Part shown: one piece after another, positions 2,730 to 56,013 of the stretch | How the letters are laid out: each line of letters begins with the position of its first letter | Numbering within the stretch: the first letter of the stretch is position 1 | Virus record (IMG/VR): IMGVR_UViG_3300035665_002545 | Span: 1 to 56,256 of that record | DNA: 56,256 nt | Origin: a virus | Lineage: Duplodnaviria; Caudoviricetes | Direction: 5' to 3' (one strand) | Notes under the pieces: model-generated | Databases searched by the model: none | What the model saw: only the letters and a program-made list of their open reading frames with translations | What the model was told of the DNA's origin: nothing | Translations under genes and position numbers: made by a program

Positions 2730-3667
2730 TTGAAGGAAACCGACGCCATGATTTCTGTGAGACATGCAACTAGATTGATCTCTTGATCTGCACAGAAAGC
2801 TGACTTGTAGCCATAGTCAGCCAGAATCAACACCAGTTGTGGAACTTCAACTACCTTGTTGGAGAAGTCATCATAGACCTTGCGAAAGATCACCTGTGGA
2901 TCGTTGTCGATGTTGTTCACAACCCACTTACGCATCTTCTGCCAGTCCTTCGCCTTCATTGCATCTGAAAGTTCAGCTGTGCTAACATCTCCAACTTTTG
3001 CGAGGATACCTTCATCAATCTTACCGCTTGAAGAATATCTTTGCAGTTCGTTGATGATCCTGCGATAGTCAGGAAAGAACTTTAGAAGAAGTGAAGCGAT
3101 GACTTTCTCGTCAAACTCAATCCCCTCTCTTTCAAGAATGAACTGAATTCGCTTCATAAACTTACCAGCAATCTTTGGTTTTTCTTCCTTGCTATACTTG
3201 AACTCAATGACTGCACACCGAGAATGCAATGCAGGGATGATTCGATTCTTGTAGTTGCAAGTCAGAATGAATCGACAGTTGGTAGAGAACTCTTCCATGA
3301 ACCTACGCAAGGCAGGTTGAGTAGAGTTAGGATTCAGATAATCCGCCTCATCAAGAATGACAACTTTCGTCTTTCCTGAGAAGGAAACCGTCGAGGCGAA
3401 CTGCTTGATAGTGGTCCTAAGAACATCGATACCCGATTCTTCCGAACCATTGATGATGATGTAGTCAGTTCCCAACTCCTCACAGATTGCTCGAGCAACA
3501 GTTGTCTTTCCCATGCCTGCGCCACCGCACAGAAGCATGTTCTGAATCTCCCCCTTATCAACCGACTCTTGAAACACCGCTCGCTGCTCTGCAGGAAGAA
3601 TGCAATCATCCAGTTTGCGAGGACGATAGCGTTCAACCCACAGAAACTCATTGTCACGAACTTGCAT
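2726..3667 (-). CDS. gp44: clamp loader large subunit gp44
   Basis: LWVERYRP, Walker A GAGMGKTT, Walker B ILDEAD, SRC motif. Confidence 0.95.
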   Translation of the reverse strand: MQVRDNEFLWVERYRPRKLDDCILPAEQRAVFQESVDKGEIQNMLLCGGAGMGKTTVARAICEELGTDYIIINGSEESGIDVLRTTIKQFASTVSFSGKTKVVILDEADYLNPNSTQPALRRFMEEFSTNCRFILTCNYKNRIIPALHSRCAVIEFKYSKEEKPKIAGKFMKRIQFILEREGIEFDEKVIASLLLKFFPDYRRIINELQRYSSSGKIDEGILAKVGDVSTAELSDAMKAKDWQKMRKWVVNNIDNDPQVIFRKVYDDFSNKVVEVPQLVLILADYGYKSAFCADQEINLVACLTEIMASVSFK

Positions 3668-3682
3668 AATATAAGACTCCAA

Positions 3683-4339
3683 TTAGATTGTCGAACCAGG
3701 TTCCATCGCAATCAGATAAGTCATCGTTCCTGCAGCATTCTTGAACTGACAGAACATCTTCTTAGAAATGATGCACTCATAAGCGTCGGGAACCAACTTG
3801 AAGTTTTCAGAGGAAAGGTTGCATTCAAACTCGAGTTCAGTTTCGCCAATCGTCTTGTTGAAACTATTTGCCGACTCATTCTTCCGATCACCAATCTTCA
3901 TTGTAACCCAACCCTTCTTGGCAATCAATGAGATTGTAGGAGCAGAAAGTAGACCTGCCGTCTTGATGATAGTTTGAACATCCTTGGCAGTTAGATTGAA
4001 CTTGAAGTGTTCTTCTACTTCAATGTTCTTGGTGGGAGCAGCAACAATAAGTGATGGTTCGCAGTAGAAGTATTCGAACTTGCCTACATCGTTAGTGATG
4101 CTAAGGCTCTTCTCGCCAAACTCAACCTCTTGATTGTCGCCAAAGGTCAGAAGTTGTAGCAGAGAGTTCAGGTCATAGATAGCAACTTCACGCGGAAAGG
4201 TCTCCGCGACTGATGCCCGAGCGAATACTGATTTGGGGGTCGAGATCGTTGAAATACTCTGGCCCTCCCGAAAGAGAAGATTCGAGTTGATCGTAGCGAA
4301 ATTCTTGAGGATGTTGATTGTTTCTTGCGAGATTTTCAT
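3683..4339 (-). CDS. gp45: sliding clamp gp45
   Basis: MKISQETINILKNFATIN, IYDLN, YLIAME; gp45-44-62-regA synteny. Confidence 0.93.
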   Translation of the reverse strand: MKISQETINILKNFATINSNLLFREGQSISTISTPKSVFARASVAETFPREVAIYDLNSLLQLLTFGDNQEVEFGEKSLSITNDVGKFEYFYCEPSLIVAAPTKNIEVEEHFKFNLTAKDVQTIIKTAGLLSAPTISLIAKKGWVTMKIGDRKNESANSFNKTIGETELEFECNLSSENFKLVPDAYECIISKKMFCQFKNAAGTMTYLIAMEPGSTI

Positions 4340-7669: not shown

Positions 7670-8454
7670 TTGTATTGTTCCAATTCAATGTGCAAAGGAT
7701 TTAGAGGTAACCCAATAGATGAGAGTCTTTCTGATGACCCAATATAATCTTTGCCTCGAGAAAACGAAAGTGGTCTAGTATGTCCAGTGACTCCACTCAA
7801 AAGTTTGAGCTGTTCTGATATAAGCATTTTTTTTGTGGGAACACAATTTATATCTTTATGTGTAGGATAGTTGATCACGTACTCTCTCATAATAATAATG
7901 AAGTCTTTTACAGAGATGTTGTCGAAGTATTTATCCTCGATAACAAACTCATGTGTGCCTGACATAAACTTAGAGAACAATCTAAAGTCAGGTTCACCTT
8001 CTCCAAAGCAACCGAAAAGTCTAAGAGTATAAAAGTTAGGTTCATGTAGACACAGTCTTGATATGAGATTTTTTGACAACCCGTAAGATGTTTTAGGTAC
8101 ACTATCTAGTATGTCATACTCGTGACAAATTCCCTCTTTTTCAAACTCTGCGCCAGAACCAATGTTAATGTAGCGATCAAAGAGGTGTTTGCATCGTCTA
8201 AAGTTATCAAACACGATTAAGTTTTCAGATACGATATCAATCGTATTATCATTTACCCTTGACTTTCCTCCCGCTGAATAGGCATTGATGATAACATCAG
8301 GATTCACACCCAAAAGGAAGGCGCGCACCTCTTGATGATTTAGTAGGTTTACATCCCCTCGATATACTGGAAAGACCCTGTGTCCGATTTCAAAAAACGT
8401 CTTTAGCGCAGATCCTATGAATCCTCCAGCACCTATGATAACTATCTTCTTCAT
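7657..8454 (-). CDS. NAD-dependent sugar epimerase/reductase (extended SDR)
   Basis: GAGGFIG, GSGAEF, YGLSK; translationally coupled to the TPP enzyme. Confidence 0.8.
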   Translation of the reverse strand: MKKIVIIGAGGFIGSALKTFFEIGHRVFPVYRGDVNLLNHQEVRAFLLGVNPDVIINAYSAGGKSRVNDNTIDIVSENLIVFDNFRRCKHLFDRYINIGSGAEFEKEGICHEYDILDSVPKTSYGLSKNLISRLCLHEPNFYTLRLFGCFGEGEPDFRLFSKFMSGTHEFVIEDKYFDNISVKDFIIIMREYVINYPTHKDINCVPTKKMLISEQLKLLSGVTGHTRPLSFSRGKDYIGSSERLSSIGLPLNPLHIELEQYKCLK

Positions 8455-19986: not shown

Positions 19987-20002
19987 AACTAAGTGAAAAG
20001 GA

Positions 20003-21196
20003 TTAGGCAGCAGCGGGGACTGCTTCAGCAGGTGCTTCGGTCGTAGCAGCCTCGCCAGACACCGTGCTGTCAACTTTGGTGTAGAGGTCAAGGAAAGCGG
20101 TTTTGGTTTCAGCGTCAAACCGGTTGGTGCAGAGCTGGATTGCTTTCAGGCGATCCTTGAACATAGAGAAGGCCCGGACGATATGCACCAGACGGCGAGT
20201 CGAAACGATCTCATCGATACCCCCCTCGAGATAAGTTTTGCGGATAATGTCTGCCCAAGTGATCAGCTTGCTAGCAAAGTCATCATCCATGCAGTTAAGC
20301 TGGGTCATGTTATTGACCACAATCTTCTTCTCGACCGCGGCGGAAGGATATTCCTGCTCATGGGTGATCGGGAAGCGCTCGAGGAAGGCCTCATCAAGAA
20401 TCTGCGCGGCAATGAACTTGCCATCTTCGGTACCACGGCCTTTGGTGTTAGCGGTGGCGATGATATTGAACCCATCAGCAGGATAGATAAGTTCGCCTGT
20501 TTTCTTGTTGAAGTAGGGCTTACCCTCGAGGATTGCCTGCAGGCACATAAGTTTATTCGAACCGCGGTCGATCTCATCCAGGATAACGATAGCACCCCGC
20601 TTCATAGCGAGGAGGACAGGACCCTCACGGTAAACCACATTACCGTCCACCAGAGTATTGGAGCCGATAAGGTCATCCTCATCCGTCTCAATGCTGATAT
20701 TGACTCGGATGCACTCACGCTTGAGTTTAGCGCAGACCTGCTCGACCATTGTCGTCTTACCATTACCGGACAGGCCCGTGATAAAGACGGGATAGAACTG
20801 CTTGCTGGTGACAATCATCTCGAGGTCACGGTGAAACCCGAAAGCAACATAAGTAGAGTCCCGATTGGGAATCAGCGAGTCAGTGATATCAGTCACCAGC
20901 TTGCGCTGCTTGAGCGGGACTACCTGAGCGAGCATAGCGGGTTGCTCAGCGGGTGCAGGTGCAGGAGAAGTGACGGGAGGCAGGGTCACCTCAGTCGAAG
21001 TAACCGCGGCGACTCGATACAGGCCCCGACCCGCCTTGTAGGCGGCGCCGTCAAGAAGAAACCAAGGGGTCGCAAGTCCGTTGCTCTGGACATACTCCAT
21101 GACCTGAGCGCGAGTCACGGTGGGACCGTAGGCCTCGCCAAGGTTGCGAAGAAGTTCGAATTTCTGATCAGTGGTAAAAGCAGCGTTCTTAGCCAT
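20003..21196 (-). CDS. CobS-like MoxR-family AAA+ ATPase
   Basis: [42 protein letters not shown]. Confidence 0.9.
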
Positions 21197-21223
21197 GTCT
21201 TGCTCCGTTCAATTGACACTTAC

Positions 21224-21252
21224 ATTATGATGGAATCTGGGGGTCTTGTCAA
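21224..21252 (-). promoter_or_regulatory. sigma70-type early promoter TTGACA-N17-CATAAT
   Basis: -35 at 21247-21252, -10 at 21224-21229, upstream of the CobS-like ATG. Confidence 0.75.
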
Positions 21253-21265
21253 GAACTATTTTGAC

Positions 21266-21307
21266 TGTTGTTTCCACACAACAGAACTTTGTTGCACAGA
21301 AACAACA
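21266..21307. repeat. two tandem TGTTG-N8-CAACA palindromes
   Basis: TGTTGTTTCCACACAACA (21266-21283) and TGTTGCACAGAAACAACA (21290-21307), 24 bp apart. Confidence 0.75.
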
Positions 21308-21314
21308 CTTAGTT

Positions 21315-23471
21315 TTAGTGGTTTTTGCTGACAATCTCGGCAAAGCGACTCAGAAAGATGCGGTTCATACCCGCCGAGCGCACGCTCTCAAGGAAGGCCT
21401 TCTTGATATCATACTTAGAAGCCTTCGAGTCAACATTGATACCATGGTCAGTAATGCGAAGATTTTTGCTGGAAACAATGAAGTAGATATCGTACCCAGC
21501 ACCTGTCAGCGGGAAGAACTTTTGCTTACGGGCAGCAGCAATTTCTTTATCTGAAGGAAGAACTTTTTTGATAGAATACTCACGAGCCATGCTCTTGACT
21601 GCAGAGGGTAAACTATCGTCTGTGATAAAGAACCCGATCATATTTGCTTTGGTGATTTTCTTTGACAGATCAATCAGAACCCGAGTGACACACTCCCCAT
21701 GAGTGTAAGTAACTGACTCACGGGTCTTCGGATCAGTCAAGCAAATTTTGTAGTTGCCGTAGGTGCCATTGCCTGCCAAAGACCACAGATAACCACACTT
21801 CGAAGAATTAACGAACATGTTATCTGTGCCAGTAGCAGAGCCATCGGTGAGGAACATCGTAGTCAGAACTTCGAGTTTATAAGCTGCACGGAATTCTTGT
21901 GCAATCGAATTAGAAGCGATGATTGCCTCATTGAGCGGAGTACCCGAAAGCGCCTCACTATCAGGAACATGTCCACGGATGTACAGGTTCCGAAGAACCT
22001 CGAGGTCTTGCAAAGCGTTGGTAAACTCAAGTCGGGACATTGAAGAGGACAAGTATTCCTTCAAGTGAAACAAGTGATGCTCAACGGAGAGAACGTCTGT
22101 TTCAGTACGATTGATCAAGTTATTAGATTTTACTCCGCGGATGCTCCAAAGCTTGGGGCTATCGCTAAACCCATAGACGCGGAAAGGAATGTTAACTTTG
22201 CGGCAGAAAACACTCAGGACCATAACCTGCTCAAGGGTGCCTTCCATGTTGCTCCGCATAGAGCCCGACAGGTCAAGGAACATAAGCATGCCGTGGTTCT
22301 TACCCTGCGGTACTTGGGTAACTCGCTTGAACATATCATCGGTGAAGCGATACTTGCTGATCTTGGTCATATCAAGTTCGCCTGTCTTAGAAATAGACGC
22401 CCGGGCAAACTGCTTAGCGTTCTTGCGAAGTTCGAACTCTTGCACCAGACCATTGATATAGCGCAGGTTCTTAGAATAGAACTCCTTGAGGGGGAAGTTC
22501 GCTTTCTCGCCCTCGAAGAAAGCATTGAGGTGCATGTTGGCGTAAACTTCCTTATGCCCGACGATACGGTCAGTCAGATCATAAGTAGGAAGATCGATAT
22601 ATACCGTGGGAATGCACTTCTCATCCACCAGCGACTGCTCACGCTCCCGGAACGACTGGTCGGTATGAGAAACGGGATCAGTCAGTTCCTCATCATAAGC
22701 GCCTGTGTCTGCTGATCCGCCATAGTCAAACTCTTGGTCATCATCTGAGTCAGAGTCTAGATCTGAGGCCTCGAGTTCGCCATCTTCGGAATTATCATCC
22801 TCTTCTGAATAGTCGGAATTTTCATAGTCGGTATCCTCATAGTCATTTGTCTGAGGTTGTTCGGCACCCTCAGAGCTGCCAGAACGGTCATTGCCGCGCT
22901 CTTCAGAATTTTCTTGTTTTTTGGCGCGATCATAGAGGATAGTGGCAACATCCACCACATCTTCCCAGGTCTCGCACTCGCCAACCATATCGACAAAAGG
23001 CCGCTCTTCAGATGAGAAGGTCACCCCCGCCATGACACCGAGTTTATAATGCAGGTTGATCCGGTCGATCAAAGCAAGCAAGTTGATATCAGGAACTTTA
23101 TTGAGACCGAAGAAGTCACGCGCATCCAGTTCCTTGTAGCCACGATAGAAGGAAGGGCGAATGCCGGGAAACTTGTCCTTGATCATCCGCTCGATCCGGG
23201 CATCCTCGACCACATTAAGGAAGCTCTTGAACCCGGGACGGTTACCCGCAAGGGCATTGTGCCAACCTTCGGGGGGAGTATAAAGAGCATGACCAACCTC
23301 ATGGCCCATGAGCAAGTCATAGAGGTCAGCAGACATATCTTTGAACACCGGGCAAGCAAGAATACGCTGCTTGGTGTCAAAATAAGCGGTGGGGATGTTC
23401 TTGTGCTGAACAGTAATGTTCTCTTCGGCAAGCAGCCGAGCGAGGATTGACTTGGTTTCTACTACAGACAT
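21315..23471 (-). CDS. CobT-like protein: HEXXH metallopeptidase-like domain, acidic linker and VWA domain
   Basis: HEVGH, NVVEDARIE, D/E-rich linker, MIDAS DLSGS...GTPL...LTDG. Confidence 0.85.
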   Translation of the reverse strand: MSVVETKSILARLLAEENITVQHKNIPTAYFDTKQRILACPVFKDMSADLYDLLMGHEVGHALYTPPEGWHNALAGNRPGFKSFLNVVEDARIERMIKDKFPGIRPSFYRGYKELDARDFFGLNKVPDINLLALIDRINLHYKLGVMAGVTFSSEERPFVDMVGECETWEDVVDVATILYDRAKKQENSEERGNDRSGSSEGAEQPQTNDYEDTDYENSDYSEEDDNSEDGELEASDLDSDSDDDQEFDYGGSADTGAYDEELTDPVSHTDQSFREREQSLVDEKCIPTVYIDLPTYDLTDRIVGHKEVYANMHLNAFFEGEKANFPLKEFYSKNLRYINGLVQEFELRKNAKQFARASISKTGELDMTKISKYRFTDDMFKRVTQVPQGKNHGMLMFLDLSGSMRSNMEGTLEQVMVLSVFCRKVNIPFRVYGFSDSPKLWSIRGVKSNNLINRTETDVLSVEHHLFHLKEYLSSSMSRLEFTNALQDLEVLRNLYIRGHVPDSEALSGTPLNEAIIASNSIAQEFRAAYKLEVLTTMFLTDGSATGTDNMFVNSSKCGYLWSLAGNGTYGNYKICLTDPKTRESVTYTHGECVTRVLIDLSKKITKANMIGFFITDDSLPSAVKSMAREYSIKKVLPSDKEIAAARKQKFFPLTGAGYDIYFIVSSKNLRITDHGINVDSKASKYDIKKAFLESVRSAGMNRIFLSRFAEIVSKNH

Positions 23472-23495
23472 GTGATCTCCTACTGAACATCTACG

Positions 23496-23523
23496 ATTAT
23501 ACAGGAACCACAGCCCTTTGCAA
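23496..23523 (-). promoter_or_regulatory. sigma70-type early promoter TTGCAA-N16-TATAAT
   Basis: Perfect -10 at 23496-23501, followed by a GGAG RBS before the ATG at 23471. Confidence 0.6.
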
Positions 23524-23527
23524 CCGG

Positions 23528-23569
23528 CGTGTCAAAAATACAACATTTCGGTGTTGCGTAAAAACAACA
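23528..23569. repeat. tandem TGTTG-N8-CAACA palindromes (one degenerate)
   Basis: CGTGTCAAAAATACAACA (23528-23545) and TGTTGCGTAAAAACAACA (23552-23569), again 24 bp apart. Confidence 0.7.
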
Positions 23570-23570
23570 C

Positions 23571-24065
23571 CTATTTTCGCGCCTTTCGAACCGCCAGATC
23601 CCACTTCAACTTTGACACTCGATCTTTCATGGTAAGGCCTTCCATGTGATCATATTCATGCAGAAAGACCCTAGCTGTCAACCCCCGAAAAGTATTTCTT
23701 ACAACTTCTCCTGTCTCGATCTGATATTCGGCAACTATCTCAGAAGGTCTTTTTAGTTTAAGTTTGACTCCAGGATAGGATAGACAACCTTCCTCATAAA
23801 GTTCCTCACCATGAGCTTCTAGGATGTTGGGATTGAACACAAAAATCTTCAAGTCATCTATACCAATGACAAAGACTCTTCGATTAATTCCCAGCTGGTT
23901 TGCAGACAACCCCACGCCCTTCTCCTTGATCATCTGTTCAAAGAGTGCTAAAGCAAAAATTTTAGCAGTTGAACCTTCCTTTTCAAAGTCATATTCTTCA
24001 GGTTTGCTATGTAAGGTAGGATCTGATGAAGACACTAGTTTTAATTTATCTTTGCGAACTATCAT
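23571..24065 (-). CDS. def: peptide deformylase
   Basis: GVGLSANQ, EGCLS, HEYDH. Confidence 0.93.
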   Translation of the reverse strand: MIVRKDKLKLVSSSDPTLHSKPEEYDFEKEGSTAKIFALALFEQMIKEKGVGLSANQLGINRRVFVIGIDDLKIFVFNPNILEAHGEELYEEGCLSYPGVKLKLKRPSEIVAEYQIETGEVVRNTFRGLTARVFLHEYDHMEGLTMKDRVSKLKWDLAVRKARK

Positions 24066-50762: not shown

Positions 50763-51599
50763 TTATTTTAGACCCATGGCTTGGCGAATTTTAGTGGCAC
50801 TAATACAATGAATATTGTCATCAAAAACTTCTTGCTCGATCTTATAGCCAACATCACGCCCATACGTAATATTAACTACATTAGGCACTACTAAAATTTC
50901 ATAACGACCTTGATAAAGGGGGTCTAAATCACGCCTAATGTAGTTTTTTACTTGTTCAATCGCAAACGGATTGCTATCATTCCACCCCTGGCAGTCACGA
51001 ATCATAATGCAAACTTGACCTGTTTTTTTCAGAGCTCTTTCAAAAAGCGCACGATGACCTTCATGCCAAGGTTGCCAACGACCTAACATTTGAACAGTTT
51101 CTTGCTTCCAGTCAAAGCGTGGACGGCGTTGTTCATTAACGATCCGTTCCCCCACATACTCAGCCCACCTTTCTGCATTTTTTTCTGTGATACGAAAGTC
51201 GTATATATCGGGAGGTATAAATGCCTTGTTAGTATCCTCGTATCTTCCTGCATCAATAGTATCCATCCAGATTGTCCAGTCAGCTTTGAAGTTATGGCGC
51301 ATCTCAGGAAGTGGAGCAATAAAATCACAAATTACATAATCTGTGCTTGATTCAAAAGCAAACTGCGCCATTCGAATACTTTGGCGTATTCTTCCCTCTC
51401 TAGAAAAGTCCCAGTCGTTGAACTTCTTACGAATTTCATCTGCGTTAAACCAAGTGACAGACGCATTGGGAAGCCGAGGGACCATCTCACGATTGAACCA
51501 ATCCATAGGAGGTACGCTTAGCTCGAGATACTTCTTAAGTTTTTCTGCAAGGTATGTCTTTCCTGATCCGGGGAGACCCATAACAAGAATTTTTTGCAT
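50763..51599 (-). CDS. APS-kinase-like domain fused to an HxGH nucleotidyltransferase domain
   Basis: P-loop MGLPGSGKT, NADEIR...DFSREGR.RQ; C-terminal GRWQPWHEGH and ISATKIR. Confidence 0.75.
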   Translation of the reverse strand: MQKILVMGLPGSGKTYLAEKLKKYLELSVPPMDWFNREMVPRLPNASVTWFNADEIRKKFNDWDFSREGRIRQSIRMAQFAFESSTDYVICDFIAPLPEMRHNFKADWTIWMDTIDAGRYEDTNKAFIPPDIYDFRITEKNAERWAEYVGERIVNEQRRPRFDWKQETVQMLGRWQPWHEGHRALFERALKKTGQVCIMIRDCQGWNDSNPFAIEQVKNYIRRDLDPLYQGRYEILVVPNVVNITYGRDVGYKIEQEVFDDNIHCISATKIRQAMGLK

Positions 51600-51600
51600 A

Positions 51601-51852
51601 TTACACCAAAGCTGCTTTTCCGTTTGCAATTGCGGCGGTTAGATCAGAAAGATCGCCACCGAGTTCAACAACTTTTGGATCTGCCATGACAATCTCCAGA
51701 TGGGCAACGTTTCTTTCAATGTTGCCACGACCTTCGTCGGTTAGTTCGCCGCGATCTGCTTTCTTCTGAAGTTCATCAGTAATAACCCAAACACTGTCAC
51801 GCGCTGCGCGAACGGTGCCATCTACTCTTTCTTGATCGGTTGGTTCTGTCAT
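51601..51852 (-). CDS. hypothetical protein
   Basis: 83-aa ORF with a GGAG RBS, tightly packed between its neighbours. Confidence 0.65.
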   Translation of the reverse strand: MTEPTDQERVDGTVRAARDSVWVITDELQKKADRGELTDEGRGNIERNVAHLEIVMADPKVVELGGDLSDLTAAIANGKAALV

Positions 51853-51853
51853 T

Positions 51854-52807
51854 TTAAGCTCCTATGATACTTGAAGGTTCGTCGGTTGATTTAGGTGGTT
51901 CGGCATCAGGCTCGAACTCATCGGTTGGAATAGGATCATCGAGAGTTCTCCAAAACTCTGCATTCACACATTTAGATAGTGTTGCTTCAGAAAGAATTTC
52001 ATCAGGATTAATACCCCTACGACCCAAAGATTCTCTAACTTCATGCATGTCTGCCATGCCGTAAACTTCTGCATCACGTTCACGATGAATATTTTCAATC
52101 TTAGAAAAGTCATGCTCAAAGTATTCTTCACCCAAAAACTCATAAATCTTTTTCATAGTTTCTTCTGGCTTATCCATCAGATCACTATACTCGATGAAGT
52201 GTAACGACTTGAGATTACCTTCCATGATAGCTTGTTTGATTCCATTGTAGCTTTGACCCAGAATACCCATGGGGCTGGCAAGAAACTCACAACGATTGTC
52301 ATCAGTCAAAGGAACATTTGACTTAATCAACATTTCATCAATAAAGTTAATCTTTGCGCCGTCCTGTGTATAGGTGTTTCTGCGCTGCATGGCGATAAAC
52401 GAAGCAAGAATTTCCTTAATGTCTCGTACAGGACACAAAACTTTTGCTTCTACACCAAAGTAACCAGGAATGTAATGCAAACGGTTGACCCATGAACGAT
52501 TCTTATCGAAGATTACGGGTTTATCCACATCCGAGTAGTAGTTTTCCATAACCCCCGAAATAATCTTTGCCGCTTGTTGGGGTTTTGGATATGCCAGAAA
52601 CAATTCATCTTGCGACAAAGAGGTTTCAAGTGCAATCATGGTTGGGACTACAGGTGAACTAGGACCCGAGTAGAACCTAGGATTCTGATTAAGAATAGAA
52701 GAAAGCAATGTACTACCTGCGCGAGGCAATCCTGACATGAAGTAATACTTTTTCATGTTAGCTTTCATCATTTCTTCACGAATAATTTCTTTGATCATTT
52801 CTTTCAT
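51854..52807 (-). CDS. sulfotransferase family protein
   Basis: 5'-PSB loop SGLPRAGSTLL, FDKNRSW, 3'-PB motif PVRD..EILAS, IEYSDL...PEET. Confidence 0.82.
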   Translation of the reverse strand: MKEMIKEIIREEMMKANMKKYYFMSGLPRAGSTLLSSILNQNPRFYSGPSSPVVPTMIALETSLSQDELFLAYPKPQQAAKIISGVMENYYSDVDKPVIFDKNRSWVNRLHYIPGYFGVEAKVLCPVRDIKEILASFIAMQRRNTYTQDGAKINFIDEMLIKSNVPLTDDNRCEFLASPMGILGQSYNGIKQAIMEGNLKSLHFIEYSDLMDKPEETMKKIYEFLGEEYFEHDFSKIENIHRERDAEVYGMADMHEVRESLGRRGINPDEILSEATLSKCVNAEFWRTLDDPIPTDEFEPDAEPPKSTDEPSSIIGA

Positions 52808-52814
52808 AGTAACC

Positions 52815-53711
52815 TCATTGTTTGTCTACAGATGCAATGATTTTATTTATATCAAATAAATCTACATCTTCGGTGAAGGGATATTCAATCTCATTGCCAT
52901 TGAAGTCAAAGTCAAACAAGTAACTTCCTGGCAGTTTGAAGTCATACGGAATGTCGGTTGTGATATTGTCATGCATATCATAACCAAAAACTTTAGGACT
53001 TGTGCCATTCCACAAAACTGTTGACTTGCGCTTCATGGCAGCTGCTGCATGTTGCAAACTTGAATCAATCAGAATACGCTTTTTTGAATGCATAAGCAAA
53101 CTAAAAAACTCCATTAGCGATAGAGACTGCTGTGGTGTTGCATAAATGTGTTCAGCCCCATTTAGTTTGGGAGAGTTCAACTTAGTCACTTGAAAGATGT
53201 GATAATCTTTTTGATAGTGATTCACCAACTTTTGTGCTAGATCCGTGGGCATGTCGCGTGTCCATGCATAAGGTTTAGCATCAGTGGTCATCATTCCCCC
53301 GTTGGTATGAATAACCATGACAGGTTTCTTTCTTGCCCAAAACTGTTTTGACAAATCGAATTGCAGCTTATTAAACTTTACTGTGGGAGTTTCATTATTG
53401 TACTTCAATCCATACATCTCACACCAGTTTGGAATCAAACGCTTTCGCTTGTGAATGTGATTTGTAGTATAGTATGGTTCATGATGAAACAAAATGCTGT
53501 CTTTATCTTGAATGAATTCTTGATAGAAGTAACTAGTGTTGCCTAAGGTAAACACACGATCCACAAAAGGTAGATTGATGAAGATATCGGGGTATGCACA
53601 AACCACAACCAGTTTTCGGTCGGGATGATTGTTCTTGATGCATTGTGCTACGGCAGTTGCTGCAACATGTTTGCCAATTCCCCCTTGAAGGTGAAAAATG
53701 CTATATTTCAT
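52815..53711 (-). CDS. GT9-like (GT-B) glycosyltransferase
   Basis: GGIGK, NLPFVDRV, WTRD, IDSSLQHAAAA...VLW. Confidence 0.7.
   Translation of the reverse strand: MKYSIFHLQGGIGKHVAATAVAQCIKNNHPDRKLVVVCAYPDIFINLPFVDRVFTLGNTSYFYQEFIQDKDSILFHHEPYYTTNHIHKRKRLIPNWCEMYGLKYNNETPTVKFNKLQFDLSKQFWARKKPVMVIHTNGGMMTTDAKPYAWTRDMPTDLAQKLVNHYQKDYHIFQVTKLNSPKLNGAEHIYATPQQSLSLMEFFSLLMHSKKRILIDSSLQHAAAAMKRKSTVLWNGTSPKVFGYDMHDNITTDIPYDFKLPGSYLFDFDFNGNEIEYPFTEDVDLFDINKIIASVDKQ
52844..52851 (-). promoter_or_regulatory. possible internal late promoter TATAAATA for the sulfotransferase
   Basis: Exact match 36 nt upstream of the sulfotransferase start, inside the end of the upstream gene. Confidence 0.5.
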
Positions 53712-53712
53712 T

Positions 53713-54435
53713 TCAAATTCCTATAGTTTTACGAATAATATCCCAGTTTCTCGCATTGAAGAAATGGTTGTACCGATAGACATTTTTAGTATCAAGATCG
53801 ATACGCTTTTGAATCTGACTCTTGATATCTTTAGAGATGATTGTCTTTGATATCTCGCCATGAATCTTGCTTGTCTTTAGTGTGTAGATGTTTTCACTAC
53901 GTTGTATCAGATAATCGTCACCGTACCACACCTGGTATAAACTAGGTATAACTCGATACGAAGATCGCTTGATAAACATACACACACCATAGGCATAACT
54001 TTGCCCACCAATAGGTTGTGACTTGTTTACATTCAGGCGGATAAGTTCTTCTTTCATGTCAGGATGATTTATAATGTGAAAGTTATCTACACTTCCTTTA
54101 AGATGCACACCAATGATATCTATCTGAGAGAAATCTAGTGAATGCATAAAGTTAAAAACATCATGTTCTACTTGAACATCATCATTAAGAAAGCAAATCA
54201 CATCTGCACATGAACGATAGTATCCTTCATTCCATGCAGGATTGACATAGATGTTCTTGCCATAGTTTATGATATGCAACTTTTCATGGGATACCAGATG
54301 CTTGGGCCTCTTTGCATAGTCATTGTCTATCAGATAGATGTTTGATATGCTATCACAGTCGCAATAGGTTTGCAATGCCTCTGGAAAGTTTTCATCCTTC
54401 CACATAGTAGGAATAACTAAGTCAATTTTTGTCAT
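53713..54435 (-). CDS. GT2-like glycosyltransferase
   Basis: LVIPTMW, LIDN, NIYVNPAWN.G, FLNDD, VWYGDD. Confidence 0.75.
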   Translation of the reverse strand: MTKIDLVIPTMWKDENFPEALQTYCDCDSISNIYLIDNDYAKRPKHLVSHEKLHIINYGKNIYVNPAWNEGYYRSCADVICFLNDDVQVEHDVFNFMHSLDFSQIDIIGVHLKGSVDNFHIINHPDMKEELIRLNVNKSQPIGGQSYAYGVCMFIKRSSYRVIPSLYQVWYGDDYLIQRSENIYTLKTSKIHGEISKTIISKDIKSQIQKRIDLDTKNVYRYNHFFNARNWDIIRKTIGI

Positions 54436-55379
54436 AGCGATATAATTGATCGTTTTTGAATAGAAAATCCAGACAGGATAGTTTTTAGAATCGAAGGATC
54501 ACTTGTTGCATTGCTGTGAAGATAGGTGCAAGGAAGGTTGGTCATGTGACAAGGATAACAGTCACTTGCTTTATTACTGAATGCTACAAATACTTTGTTA
54601 GGATTATTTATGTTGTCTTTTACATGAGTAAACATGAACGGTCCCGAGTTCTTTCCCACGATAGTCGAGCAATGCGTTGATAGGTATGCAATCTCGTTGA
54701 TATCATTTTCAAGATGAAAGATATCATCTGTAAACAAAACATTCTGCAGAGAGGTGTCAAACTTTTCTGTACAGATAAACAACTCATTAGGATTTGATGA
54801 TGCAAGAGAGTTTACAATGTTTTGCATGCTTCCTATTTGTGATTGGAAGCTTCTAACCTTTCCGTTGCAAAACAGATGCATTCTTTTGCCTTGTTCAGCA
54901 ATAGTTTGTACGGGGTTGATATCATACTTGTCCCATTTTATGCTAGGAACACAATCTAGAGGGTTTTGCGGTAGATCAATCTGGCACTTATGGTATGAGT
55001 TGAGATAATTGATAATGAACTGATACATTCGATGCAATGATCTATAGTTAGCATGATCTTCACCCGGTAGATTGATAATGTGGGTTGGAAAGTCAACCAC
55101 CCTATTCTGATTCTGATGAAAGTATGCACCAACCCATGTGTTAATGTAGATAGTTTTATCTGTTTCAAATATCTTACGATAGTTCAGAAAATCAACTTGA
55201 AGTTTGTTTAGATCCGGTTCAAATGTAATCTTTGTGAGATCAGAAACAATTTTGGGGTGATTCTTATGATAGTATCCGAACTTTGCATCAGGTATAGAAT
55301 CAATTATAAGTTTGATATAGCCTCTACCCGAAAACACATCGCCATTGTGCCATAGATTATAGAATAGTATGTTTTTCAT
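54432..55379 (-). CDS. putative GT-B/GT9-like glycosyltransferase (paralog of 15571-16476)
   Basis: HNGD, INTWVG, LFCNG, NVLFTDDI, NEIAYLST.C..IVGKNSGPF. Confidence 0.5.
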   Translation of the reverse strand: MKNILFYNLWHNGDVFSGRGYIKLIIDSIPDAKFGYYHKNHPKIVSDLTKITFEPDLNKLQVDFLNYRKIFETDKTIYINTWVGAYFHQNQNRVVDFPTHIINLPGEDHANYRSLHRMYQFIINYLNSYHKCQIDLPQNPLDCVPSIKWDKYDINPVQTIAEQGKRMHLFCNGKVRSFQSQIGSMQNIVNSLASSNPNELFICTEKFDTSLQNVLFTDDIFHLENDINEIAYLSTHCSTIVGKNSGPFMFTHVKDNINNPNKVFVAFSNKASDCYPCHMTNLPCTYLHSNATSDPSILKTILSGFSIQKRSIISL

Positions 55380-56013
55380 TTAGATCACGCTCAAAGTCAC
55401 CTTTGTACATCTTGGGTCCCATATGTGCAACAGTATGGGTGGGATTGATCCAAATTGTGTATCCCATCTCCATGAGCTTCCTACAAAGAAGAATATCTTC
55501 ACCTACAAATGAATCGTTTTGAAAACTATAGTCAAAAATGAGTTTTAGTTTCTTATTTCGAAAGAGAATTTCAGGATTCGATTCCCATAGATCATGAATA
55601 GCTTTCTTAGATAGCTTCATAAATCCTGTGCCTACTTTTTTGGTTTTAATATAACCATCATTATCCTGTTCTACATGAGCTTCTAAAAAGACATTATACT
55701 CAATCTTCTTATCACCTTTATTAACTACAGGAAGGCATACCACATCCTTAGGAGACATGAGAATGTCTATGAGTGCTTTGGGATCCCAATACTCATCATC
55801 ATCGATGAATACCATGCCATCATAATCTTGTTGATACGCCAGATTGATTAGTTCATTCCTAGCCATGGGCAGTATGCTCTCATTGGCTAGGAAGATTGCG
55901 TTTAAGGCAAGATCATGTTTTGCACATAATTTTATGGATTCACAAAGGCTATGCACATAATATGCATCAACCTTACCATATAAGCATGGAGTAGCTATCA
56001 AAATACGCTTCAT
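55357..56013 (-). CDS. phage GT-A-fold glycosyltransferase-like protein (paralog of 36073-36897)
   Basis: ILIATPC, ESILPMARN, FIDDD, GTGFM, GEDI..C. Confidence 0.7.
   Translation of the reverse strand: MKRILIATPCLYGKVDAYYVHSLCESIKLCAKHDLALNAIFLANESILPMARNELINLAYQQDYDGMVFIDDDEYWDPKALIDILMSPKDVVCLPVVNKGDKKIEYNVFLEAHVEQDNDGYIKTKKVGTGFMKLSKKAIHDLWESNPEILFRNKKLKLIFDYSFQNDSFVGEDILLCRKLMEMGYTIWINPTHTVAHMGPKMYKGDFERDLNEKHTIL

Follow-up and report, generated by a model that had tools for sequence, protein, structure and literature searches.

The window analysed here, the 56,256-nucleotide IMG/VR viral contig IMGVR_UViG_3300035665_002545, has a completeness of 31% according to CheckV and carries all its long open reading frames (ORFs) on the minus strand. 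One of these, at positions 50763-51599 (-) with its stop codon at 50763-50765, codes for a protein of 278 amino acids that begins MQKILVMGLPGSGKT and that joins a P-loop kinase domain to a small nucleotidyltransferase domain. A TTG codon located 10 codons further upstream would extend the protein to 288 residues; close homologues have 278 residues, which favours the ATG start. The protein matches PHROG 10255, named 'kinase', with an E-value of 6e-48, and the AlphaFold2 (AF2) model of its full length has a mean predicted local distance difference test (pLDDT) score of 91.8. A previous sequence-only reading of the window had described a fusion of about 278 residues carrying the motifs QPWHEGH and ISATKIR, located two genes away from a sulfotransferase. 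The ORF list and the translation bear out the fusion and place both motifs where they had been claimed. The second gene upstream, at 51854-52807 (-), encodes a 317-residue protein recognized as a sulfotransferase by both Pfam (Sulfotransfer_3, 56.3 bits, E 6.9e-15; Sulfotransfer_1, 41.8 bits, E 1.1e-10) and PHROG (27463, E 2.6e-76). The two genes are separated by an 83-residue ORF at 51601-51852 (-), the stop of which lies one base before the ATG codon of the fusion gene. Pfam and PHROG searches gave no match for this small ORF; among 80 related viral loci, 15 have a homologue of it at the corresponding place.

The kinase domain (N-domain) corresponds to residues 1-150 (51150-51599, -). It exceeds the Pfam cut-off for APS_kinase (PF01583; 25.0 bits for a cut-off of 21.1), with a match that spans model positions 5-93 of 152 only, as well as that for KTI12 (28.1 bits for a cut-off of 22). 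A profile of 58 homologues matched solved adenosine 5′-phosphosulfate (APS) kinases in the PDB at E-values of 6e-16 to 1e-12, and the top Foldseek matches of the full model were the APS kinases 3cr7, 1m7h, 4rfv and 2ofw. The P-loop, GLPGSGKT, is found at residues 8-15 (51555-51578, -), with G8, G13 and K14 invariant in 48 homologues. In profile alignments to the solved enzymes, the motifs NADEIR (residues 52-57) and FSREGRIRQ (residues 65-73), encoded within 51381-51446 (-), are the counterparts of LDGDNxR and GFSxEDRxEN of CysC. R57 is invariant in the same 48 homologues, and D54, F65, R70 and Q73 are at least 90% conserved. We take the residues of these two motifs to be involved in APS binding. 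Further on, DFIAP (residues 92-96; 51312-51326, -) aligns with the FISP motif of CysC. As compared to the CysC motifs, the first aspartate of DGD is replaced by asparagine and the serine of FISP by alanine or cysteine. Overall, the N-domain belongs to the APS kinase family as a divergent representative, in agreement with the sequence-only reading, and would presumably act as an APS 3′-kinase.

The second domain (C-domain) corresponds to residues 165-278 (50766-51107, -) and is a 113-residue nucleotidyltransferase of the HxGH type. The AF2 model of this domain alone has a pLDDT of 93.7. The Pfam family CTP_transf_like matches residues 173-204 with 19.0 bits, below its cut-off of 21. Three conserved elements stand out. 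The HxGH nucleotide-binding signature, GRWQPWHEGH, occupies residues 173-182 (51054-51083, -), with G173, R174, Q176, P177, H179, G181 and H182 at least 90% conserved in the 48 homologues. A GRD-type loop, YGRDVGY, is located at residues 246-252 (50844-50864, -), with G247, R248 and G251 invariant. Finally, ISATKIR (residues 266-272; 50784-50804, -) forms an ISxTxxR phosphate-binding motif in which R272 is invariant and I266 and S267 are at least 90% conserved. The sequence-only reading had proposed from such motifs that the protein is a minimal synthase of 3′-phosphoadenosine 5′-phosphosulfate (PAPS). This argument is less strong than it may seem, since all of the nucleotidyltransferase superfamily shares HxGH and ISxTxxR; the proposal itself is supported by comparative genomics, as described below.

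Relatives of the fusion protein are numerous, and viral metagenomes contain them very frequently. At least 8000 were found in a metagenome protein collection, with 2140 representatives of the family at E<=0.001 and 918 at E<=1e-10, and 409 stretches were found in IMG/VR. It had been expected that such enzymes would usually be annotated only as cytidylyltransferases. Instead, relatives appear in public sources as 'kinase', 'adenylylsulfate kinase', 'GTPase SAR1 family protein' or 'hypothetical protein', with a single case of 'phosphopantetheine adenylyltransferase'; cytidylyltransferase is not the usual name.

Association with sulfotransferases was studied in two sets of viral loci. In the first set, made of the 80 best IMG/VR loci, sulfotransferase ORFs were identified with an iterated hidden Markov model (HMM). 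One or more such ORFs were located upstream of the fusion gene and on the same strand in 48 loci, and none was found downstream in any of the 80. The frequency varied with the length of upstream DNA available, from 34 out of 49 loci with at least 5 kb, to 9 out of 16 with 2-5 kb and 5 out of 15 with less than 2 kb. The sulfotransferases vary in type, number and distance; the loci belong to related phages with a conserved gene order, so that they do not represent independent events. A second set of 79 loci, partly overlapping the first one, contained a sulfotransferase in 28 cases. In eight loci of this second set, the kinase and the nucleotidyltransferase are encoded by adjoining split genes, in one case in the reverse order.

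Fusions of the C-domain to other proteins were also observed. In protein P0246, the nucleotidyltransferase is followed by a canonical CysC that covers the full PF01583 model with 212 bits; P0246 and its relatives score 212-220 bits on this model. The reverse-order fusion P0207 has the nucleotidyltransferase preceding a divergent kinase. Moreover, the 555-residue protein P0298 (NCBI: Rhizobium sp. BK376) consists of a Sulfotransfer_2 domain, the kinase and the nucleotidyltransferase; over its entire length, the window protein aligns with residues 289-542 of P0298 (42% identity, E 2e-68). Two further candidates, P0221 and P0256, in which the nucleotidyltransferase is joined to partial chorismate synthase or DHQS pieces, have the appearance of chimeric gene predictions and were not considered further. 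Separately, three proteins of about 660 residues (P0299, P0300, P0302) carry an HMGL-like domain (PF00682) and, of the query, match the divergent kinase half alone (53-55% coverage).

The nucleotidyltransferase is also found in bacteria. In a single-cell genome of the OCS116 cluster, the surroundings of a nucleotidyltransferase-CysC fusion are those of an ordinary chromosome. In the family of this genome, a first family of marine alphaproteobacteria represented by 25 genomes, the fusion is present on the chromosome in four, and neither Sat nor CysD was found in any of the 25. Sulfotransfer_3 genes occur in five of the 25 genomes and, in two cases, lie on the contig of the fusion. A search for AprA in this family was uninformative, since no control genome was matched. 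A second family, the most telling case, comprises 11 small alphaproteobacterial genomes (0.6-1.2 Mb), ten of which carry a stand-alone nucleotidyltransferase. The gene is the last one of an operon that contains, in this order, a CysG-like methylase, sulfite reductase, CysH, DUF2061, a divergent kinase and the nucleotidyltransferase. The whole operon is present in nine of the ten genomes that carry the nucleotidyltransferase, the tenth being cut by a contig end. CysD was found in none of the 11 genomes and Sat in one; ten genomes thus have neither. An operon devoted to the reduction of activated sulfate would be meaningful only in the presence of a sulfate activator.

Some additional contexts are worth recording. 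DUF2061, a small predicted membrane protein, is encoded directly before the kinase and nucleotidyltransferase genes of the operon (for instance at 3487-3780 of locus L267; nine genomes). In some contigs of viral origin, where it scores 76 and 75 bits, it is also fused to the nucleotidyltransferase (for instance at 7767-8345 of locus L113; see also protein P0176). DUF2061 may be a further component of the system, for example for sulfate entry. In genome G176, which belongs to the sample of 401 alphaproteobacterial genomes considered below, a Sulfotransfer_3 gene on a 2.06-Mb contig starts 12 bases after the fusion gene. In genome G412 (locus L269, 9898-10679), a split kinase and nucleotidyltransferase lie among genes for a Rieske oxygenase, a HalD-like protein, a dehydrogenase and an aldolase; no sulfur gene is in view, and this locus does not fit the sulfur pattern. 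Finally, eight loci from metagenome-assembled genomes of Thermoplasmata (L177-L179, L203, L206, L218, L225, L232) show a canonical CysC followed by ORFs of about 190-225 residues that match the viral sulfotransferase HMM with 31-45 bits. A Sat gene was found within seven of these eight loci and was not found in the L188/L221-type loci, which are outside this list.

Taken together, these results lead us to propose, with a probability of roughly three in four, that the 278-residue protein is a sulfate-activating PAPS synthase whose small domain would be the sulfurylase. Four lines of evidence argue for this assignment: the adjacency of viral sulfotransferases, the triple fusion, the nucleotidyltransferase-CysC fusion in a lineage in which no Sat or CysD was found, and the sulfate-assimilation operon. 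The operon with CysG, sulfite reductase and CysH lends its support because sulfate activation accounts for the only steps that it lacks. The four lines involve different partner proteins and different lineages, and all of them are genomic in nature.

In the mechanism that we envisage, the C-domain would first join ATP and sulfate into APS with release of pyrophosphate, the conserved arginines R174, R201, R248 and R272 holding the triphosphate and the sulfate. The N-domain would then use a second ATP to phosphorylate the 3′-OH group of APS. PAPS formation would thereby pull the unfavourable sulfurylase reaction forward. As suggested by gene order only, PAPS would feed the phage sulfotransferase encoded two genes upstream, the presumed PAPS consumer. 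Together with the products of the adjacent glycosyltransferase-like genes, this enzyme would sulfate an acceptor during infection.

Several observations weigh against this assignment. A first group concerns the relatives of the C-domain. In sequence, this domain is nearest to NadM and to the archaeal nicotinamide mononucleotide adenylyltransferases (NMNATs), which are its closest homologous family. It matched F. tularensis 2qjt at an E-value of 4e-12, and its profile matched the MJ0541 enzyme (1f9a) at about 1e-11 over the first 70 residues. It also carries both NMNAT signatures, GRFQPFHxGH and ISGTxxR, in the form of GRWQPWHEGH and ISATKIR, the first of which corresponds to a common GR(F/W)QP(F/W)HxGH motif, and it shares an NPF motif with this family. 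The sequence-only reading had called for a Foldseek comparison with ATP sulfurylase. With the C-domain, this search returned NadM/NMNAT structures first and phosphopantetheine adenylyltransferase (PPAT) next, and no Sat structure was among the 50 matches listed. In addition, in the phages Sano and Bacata (three records inspected), the gene preceding the homologue encodes a NADAR domain (92 bits).

All these features would suit an enzyme of nicotinamide adenine dinucleotide (NAD) salvage resembling NadR, which joins an NMNAT to a P-loop kinase and appears among the matches (8x7f, 6gye). The C-domain would then be a nicotinamide mononucleotide adenylyltransferase, and the P-loop domain would phosphorylate nicotinamide riboside or a related ribonucleoside. 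We consider such a function very unlikely. The C-domain remains far under the cut-offs of the NCBIfam NMNAT models (30.8 as compared to 397, 26.6 to 127 and 23 to 181.2). About 25 residues equivalent to residues 75-109 of MJ0541 are missing from it, the alignment jumping from 74 to 110 while the query advances by 11. Presumably, this stretch of NMNATs carries nicotinamide-binding residues. The C-domain also lacks everything that follows the helix of the ISxTxxR motif in NMNATs. Conversely, it has an invariant GRD loop, YGRDVGY, which is skipped by the NMNAT alignment. As for the N-domain, nicotinamide riboside kinase was matched at an E-value of 0.001 and over the P-loop only, as compared to 6e-16 for APS kinases. 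Lastly, the conserved genomic contexts contain sulfotransferases, CysC, CysH and sulfite reductase rather than NAD genes; the genomic company of the C-domain is that of sulfur metabolism, not of NAD metabolism.

Structural comparison with VIA-align over 48,161 chains gave a similar order of relatives. PPAT came at the top (Z 10.1), with NadM and MJ0541 at 10.0 and NadR at 9.0. The ATP sulfurylase of T. thermophilus (1v47) ranked sixth, with a Z-score of 8.9 and a root-mean-square deviation of 3.2 for 114 aligned residues; this place near the top counts in favour of the proposed sulfurylase. Other Sat structures had Z-scores of 5.5-6.4, and cytidylyltransferases and HldC-type enzymes of 6.7-8.1. 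According to the model, the C-domain thus shares its superfamily fold with Sat, and the fold does not single out Sat. With PPAT as the best match and cytidylyltransferases also among the matches, one may imagine another nucleotide-activated or 3′-phospho-adenylylated product. In coenzyme A (CoA) synthase, adenylyl transfer is likewise followed by 3′-phosphorylation. The product could thus be CoA-like, made by a PPAT and a 3′-kinase, or it could be an activated sugar or glycerol phosphate intended for glycosyltransferases. Two candidates for the latter adjoin in the window. A GT9-like gene at 52815-53711 (-) matches Glyco_transf_9 with 17.7 bits and a GT2-like gene at 53713-54435 (-) matches Glycos_transf_2 with 16.6 bits, both under the Pfam cut-offs; the pair (52815-54435) also gives a weak match to TIGR02193, heptosyltransferase I (E 3.5e-4). 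However, in the first viral set, GT9-like neighbours are present in only 14 of the 80 loci and GT2-like ones in 11. The kinase belongs to the APS kinase family and is neither a dephospho-CoA kinase nor a sugar kinase. Such a product would also leave unexplained the CysC fusion, the sulfotransferase fusion and the operon with CysH and sulfite reductase. We therefore give this explanation as little weight as a role in NAD salvage, and PAPS synthesis remains the assignment that we prefer.

A second group of unfavourable observations concerns the comparison with Sat. PF01747, the Pfam family of Sat-type ATP sulfurylases, had no match anywhere in the window at E<=10. The RNP loop that precedes HxxH in Sat, defined as QxRN in excerpts of PMC3779200, is not present as such in the C-domain. 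Profile-profile alignment (hhalign) to 40 Sat sequences was weak (P 0.0044, probability 7.9%) and not significant by HH-suite standards. On the favourable side, this alignment, weak as it is, places YGRDVGY on the GRD loop of Sat, VGRDHAGVG, collinear with the HxGH/HxxH and ISAT/SGT motifs. According to the same excerpts, the GRD loop of Sat makes contact with the ribose and uses a backbone NH to contact the sulfate (PMC3779200). A Sat-type identity was also sought by searching the PDB with profiles and was rejected: there was no significant match to the catalytic domain of a sulfurylase, sub-threshold snippets around HxxH and ISGT being seen in 2gks only.

Sat (PF01747), alone or fused to CysC, as in Aquifex 2gks and Thermus 1v47, belongs to the same superfamily as the C-domain and would perform the same chemistry. 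The two also seem to have in common the order of the signatures: HxxH or HxGH, then the GRD loop, as far as the weak alignment indicates, then IS(G/A)TxxR. The C-domain differs by the absence of the QxRN loop, of the GxxKxxD mobile loop as such, of the N-terminal PUA-like domain and of the C-terminal domain. Overall, the C-domain is an offshoot of the NadM/NMNAT type that lies outside the Sat family, and we infer that it works like an ATP sulfurylase.

The kinase step and the bacterial genomes also provide unfavourable points. The lid region of the divergent kinase has about 12 residues in the alignment, as compared to about 28 in canonical CysC, and is therefore some 16 residues shorter; the N-domain does not have the full-length mobile lid seen in the KGLYKKAR...FTGI region of CysC. 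In excerpts of PMC10322725, the lid region of CysC is described as taking part in substrate binding. Because the lid is shortened and is implicated in substrate binding, we classified the N-domain as a divergent APS kinase family member with a putative activity. In the operon of the second bacterial family, CysH carries the CC...CxxC motif, which we take to mark APS-type reductases. In that case, it is the sulfurylase step, and not the kinase step, that the operon demands. Moreover, the absences of Sat and CysD in the two families come from incomplete genome assemblies. In a broader sample of 401 alphaproteobacterial genomes, the nucleotidyltransferase was found in 11 (plus one weak match), as a fusion with the divergent kinase or as a separate gene. 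Among these carriers, four had Sat or CysD, and seven had neither even at E<=1e-5. As compared to the whole sample, roughly half of which has Sat or CysD according to a rough hand count, this is not a significant depletion. CysD was checked in the carriers at E<=1e-5 since a stricter threshold (1e-60) with the curated cut-off probably misses short CysD proteins. Matches of about 220 bits over positions 1-205 found beside CysNC frames are probably such short CysD proteins.

These data bear on the idea that only the kinase half takes part in sulfur metabolism. It would convert APS from the host into PAPS for the phage sulfotransferase, with the nucleotidyltransferase being a regulatory or nucleotide-binding module or activating some other small phosphate compound. 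The family assignment of the kinase is solid, and the sulfurylase role of the C-domain is deduced only. Many hosts would own a sulfurylase, as Sat was found in 45 of the 401 sampled genomes and CysD-like matches in 178. In addition, domains of this pathway can become non-catalytic, as in fungal ATP sulfurylases and in the Sat/APS-kinase-like protein of Thiobacillus (3cr8). Three points nevertheless make this idea improbable, although less so than the two preceding ones. The residues of the HxGH, GRD and ISxTxxR motifs show little or no variation in 48-58 homologues, as would be expected of a catalyst. The nucleotidyltransferase accompanies CysC or the CysH/sulfite reductase operon in families for which the searches revealed no alternative supplier of APS (neither Sat nor CysD in 25/25 and 10/11 genomes). 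Finally, in three loci of the second viral set (L113, L114, L117), DUF2061-nucleotidyltransferase proteins occur with no kinase within 8 kb.

In the viruses, upstream DNA is shorter than 5 kb for 31 of the 80 loci of the first set, and no sulfotransferase was seen in 15 of the 49 loci with full flanks. Further, the complete phages Sano, Bacata and DLP_6 contain homologues at 33-40% identity, and their genomes gave no match to Sulfotransfer_1 or Sulfotransfer_3 at E<=1. In Sano (locus L001, 4963-6002; Bacata corresponds to L002), a 195-residue protein encoded before the NADAR gene shows by eye the motifs PRSRS and RPxxEVxHS. We regard this protein at most as a lead to a small sulfotransferase: its Sulfotransfer_4 score was 20.7 bits for a cut-off of 22.8, the viral sulfotransferase HMM gave no support, and the hhalign probability was 0.9%, equal to that of controls.

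The PAPS synthase that we propose can be compared with known systems. In the animal enzymes PAPSS1/2 (1x6v), an APS kinase also comes first and is followed by an HxxH-type nucleotidyltransferase; the overall reaction, 2 ATP and sulfate yielding PAPS, would be the same. The kinases are homologous, the family profile matching PAPSS1 at an E-value of 5.8e-13 and Foldseek listing 1x6v and 2ofw. However, PAPSS proteins have more than 600 residues (630 in the listed chain) as compared to 278 in the phage protein. Their sulfurylase is of the Sat type, with about 390 residues, a PUA-like part and the RNP, GxxKxxD and GRD loops, whereas the second domain of the phage protein has 113 residues and is NadM-like. 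The VIA-align Z-score between the C-domain and 1x6v is only 6.1. CysDN with CysC, often in the form of CysNC, would have the same role in the pathway, a sulfurylase being joined to an APS kinase. It differs in that CysD, an ATP pyrophosphatase of the PP-loop type, is unrelated and depends on the GTPase CysN to drive it, as stated in excerpts of PMC10322725.

In the window, genes encoding myovirus structural proteins are located downstream of the fusion gene: head-tail adaptor, head closure, sheath stabiliser, small and large terminase, sheath, tube, portal and major head protein. We take the order of this module to be that of T4-like phages. Upstream of the sulfotransferase, at 52815-56013 (-), four or five genes give weak GT9-like or GT2-like matches or none. 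This block sits within the structural region, directly before the head-tail adaptor gene. Elsewhere in the window, the stretch 20001-24000 has a G+C content of 0.47-0.50, as compared to about 0.40 in the rest. It includes a 718-residue ORF (21315-23471) and a 397-residue ORF with a weak P-loop match at 20702-20788.

According to excerpts of PMC10322725, the known ATP sulfurylases are of two forms, Sat and CysDN. Our literature search, in which subscription journals and supplements were poorly covered so that an earlier mention is possible, found no description of the kinase-nucleotidyltransferase family. Beyond the protein of the window, we think it fairly likely, with less assurance than for that protein itself, that the 113-residue domain represents a third class of ATP sulfurylase, separately derived from a NadM-like NMNAT. 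It would be the missing sulfate activator of at least two families of marine alphaproteobacteria with small genomes, placed at the end of an operon in one and fused to CysC in the other. It would also be widespread in phages, joined to an APS kinase devoid of the lid, and would give them their own supply of PAPS for sulfotransferases; DUF2061 may belong to the same system.

If this is true, a third form of ATP sulfurylase of about 110 residues would modify the way in which sulfate assimilation is predicted from genomes. Lineages that are considered unable to activate sulfate for want of Sat and CysDN may do so, as in the 25 of 25 and ten of 11 genomes considered here. For the enzymatic regeneration of PAPS, a synthase of 278 residues would moreover be convenient to use. 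Finally, phages may commonly drive PAPS synthesis and sulfation, which are now annotated only as 'kinase'.

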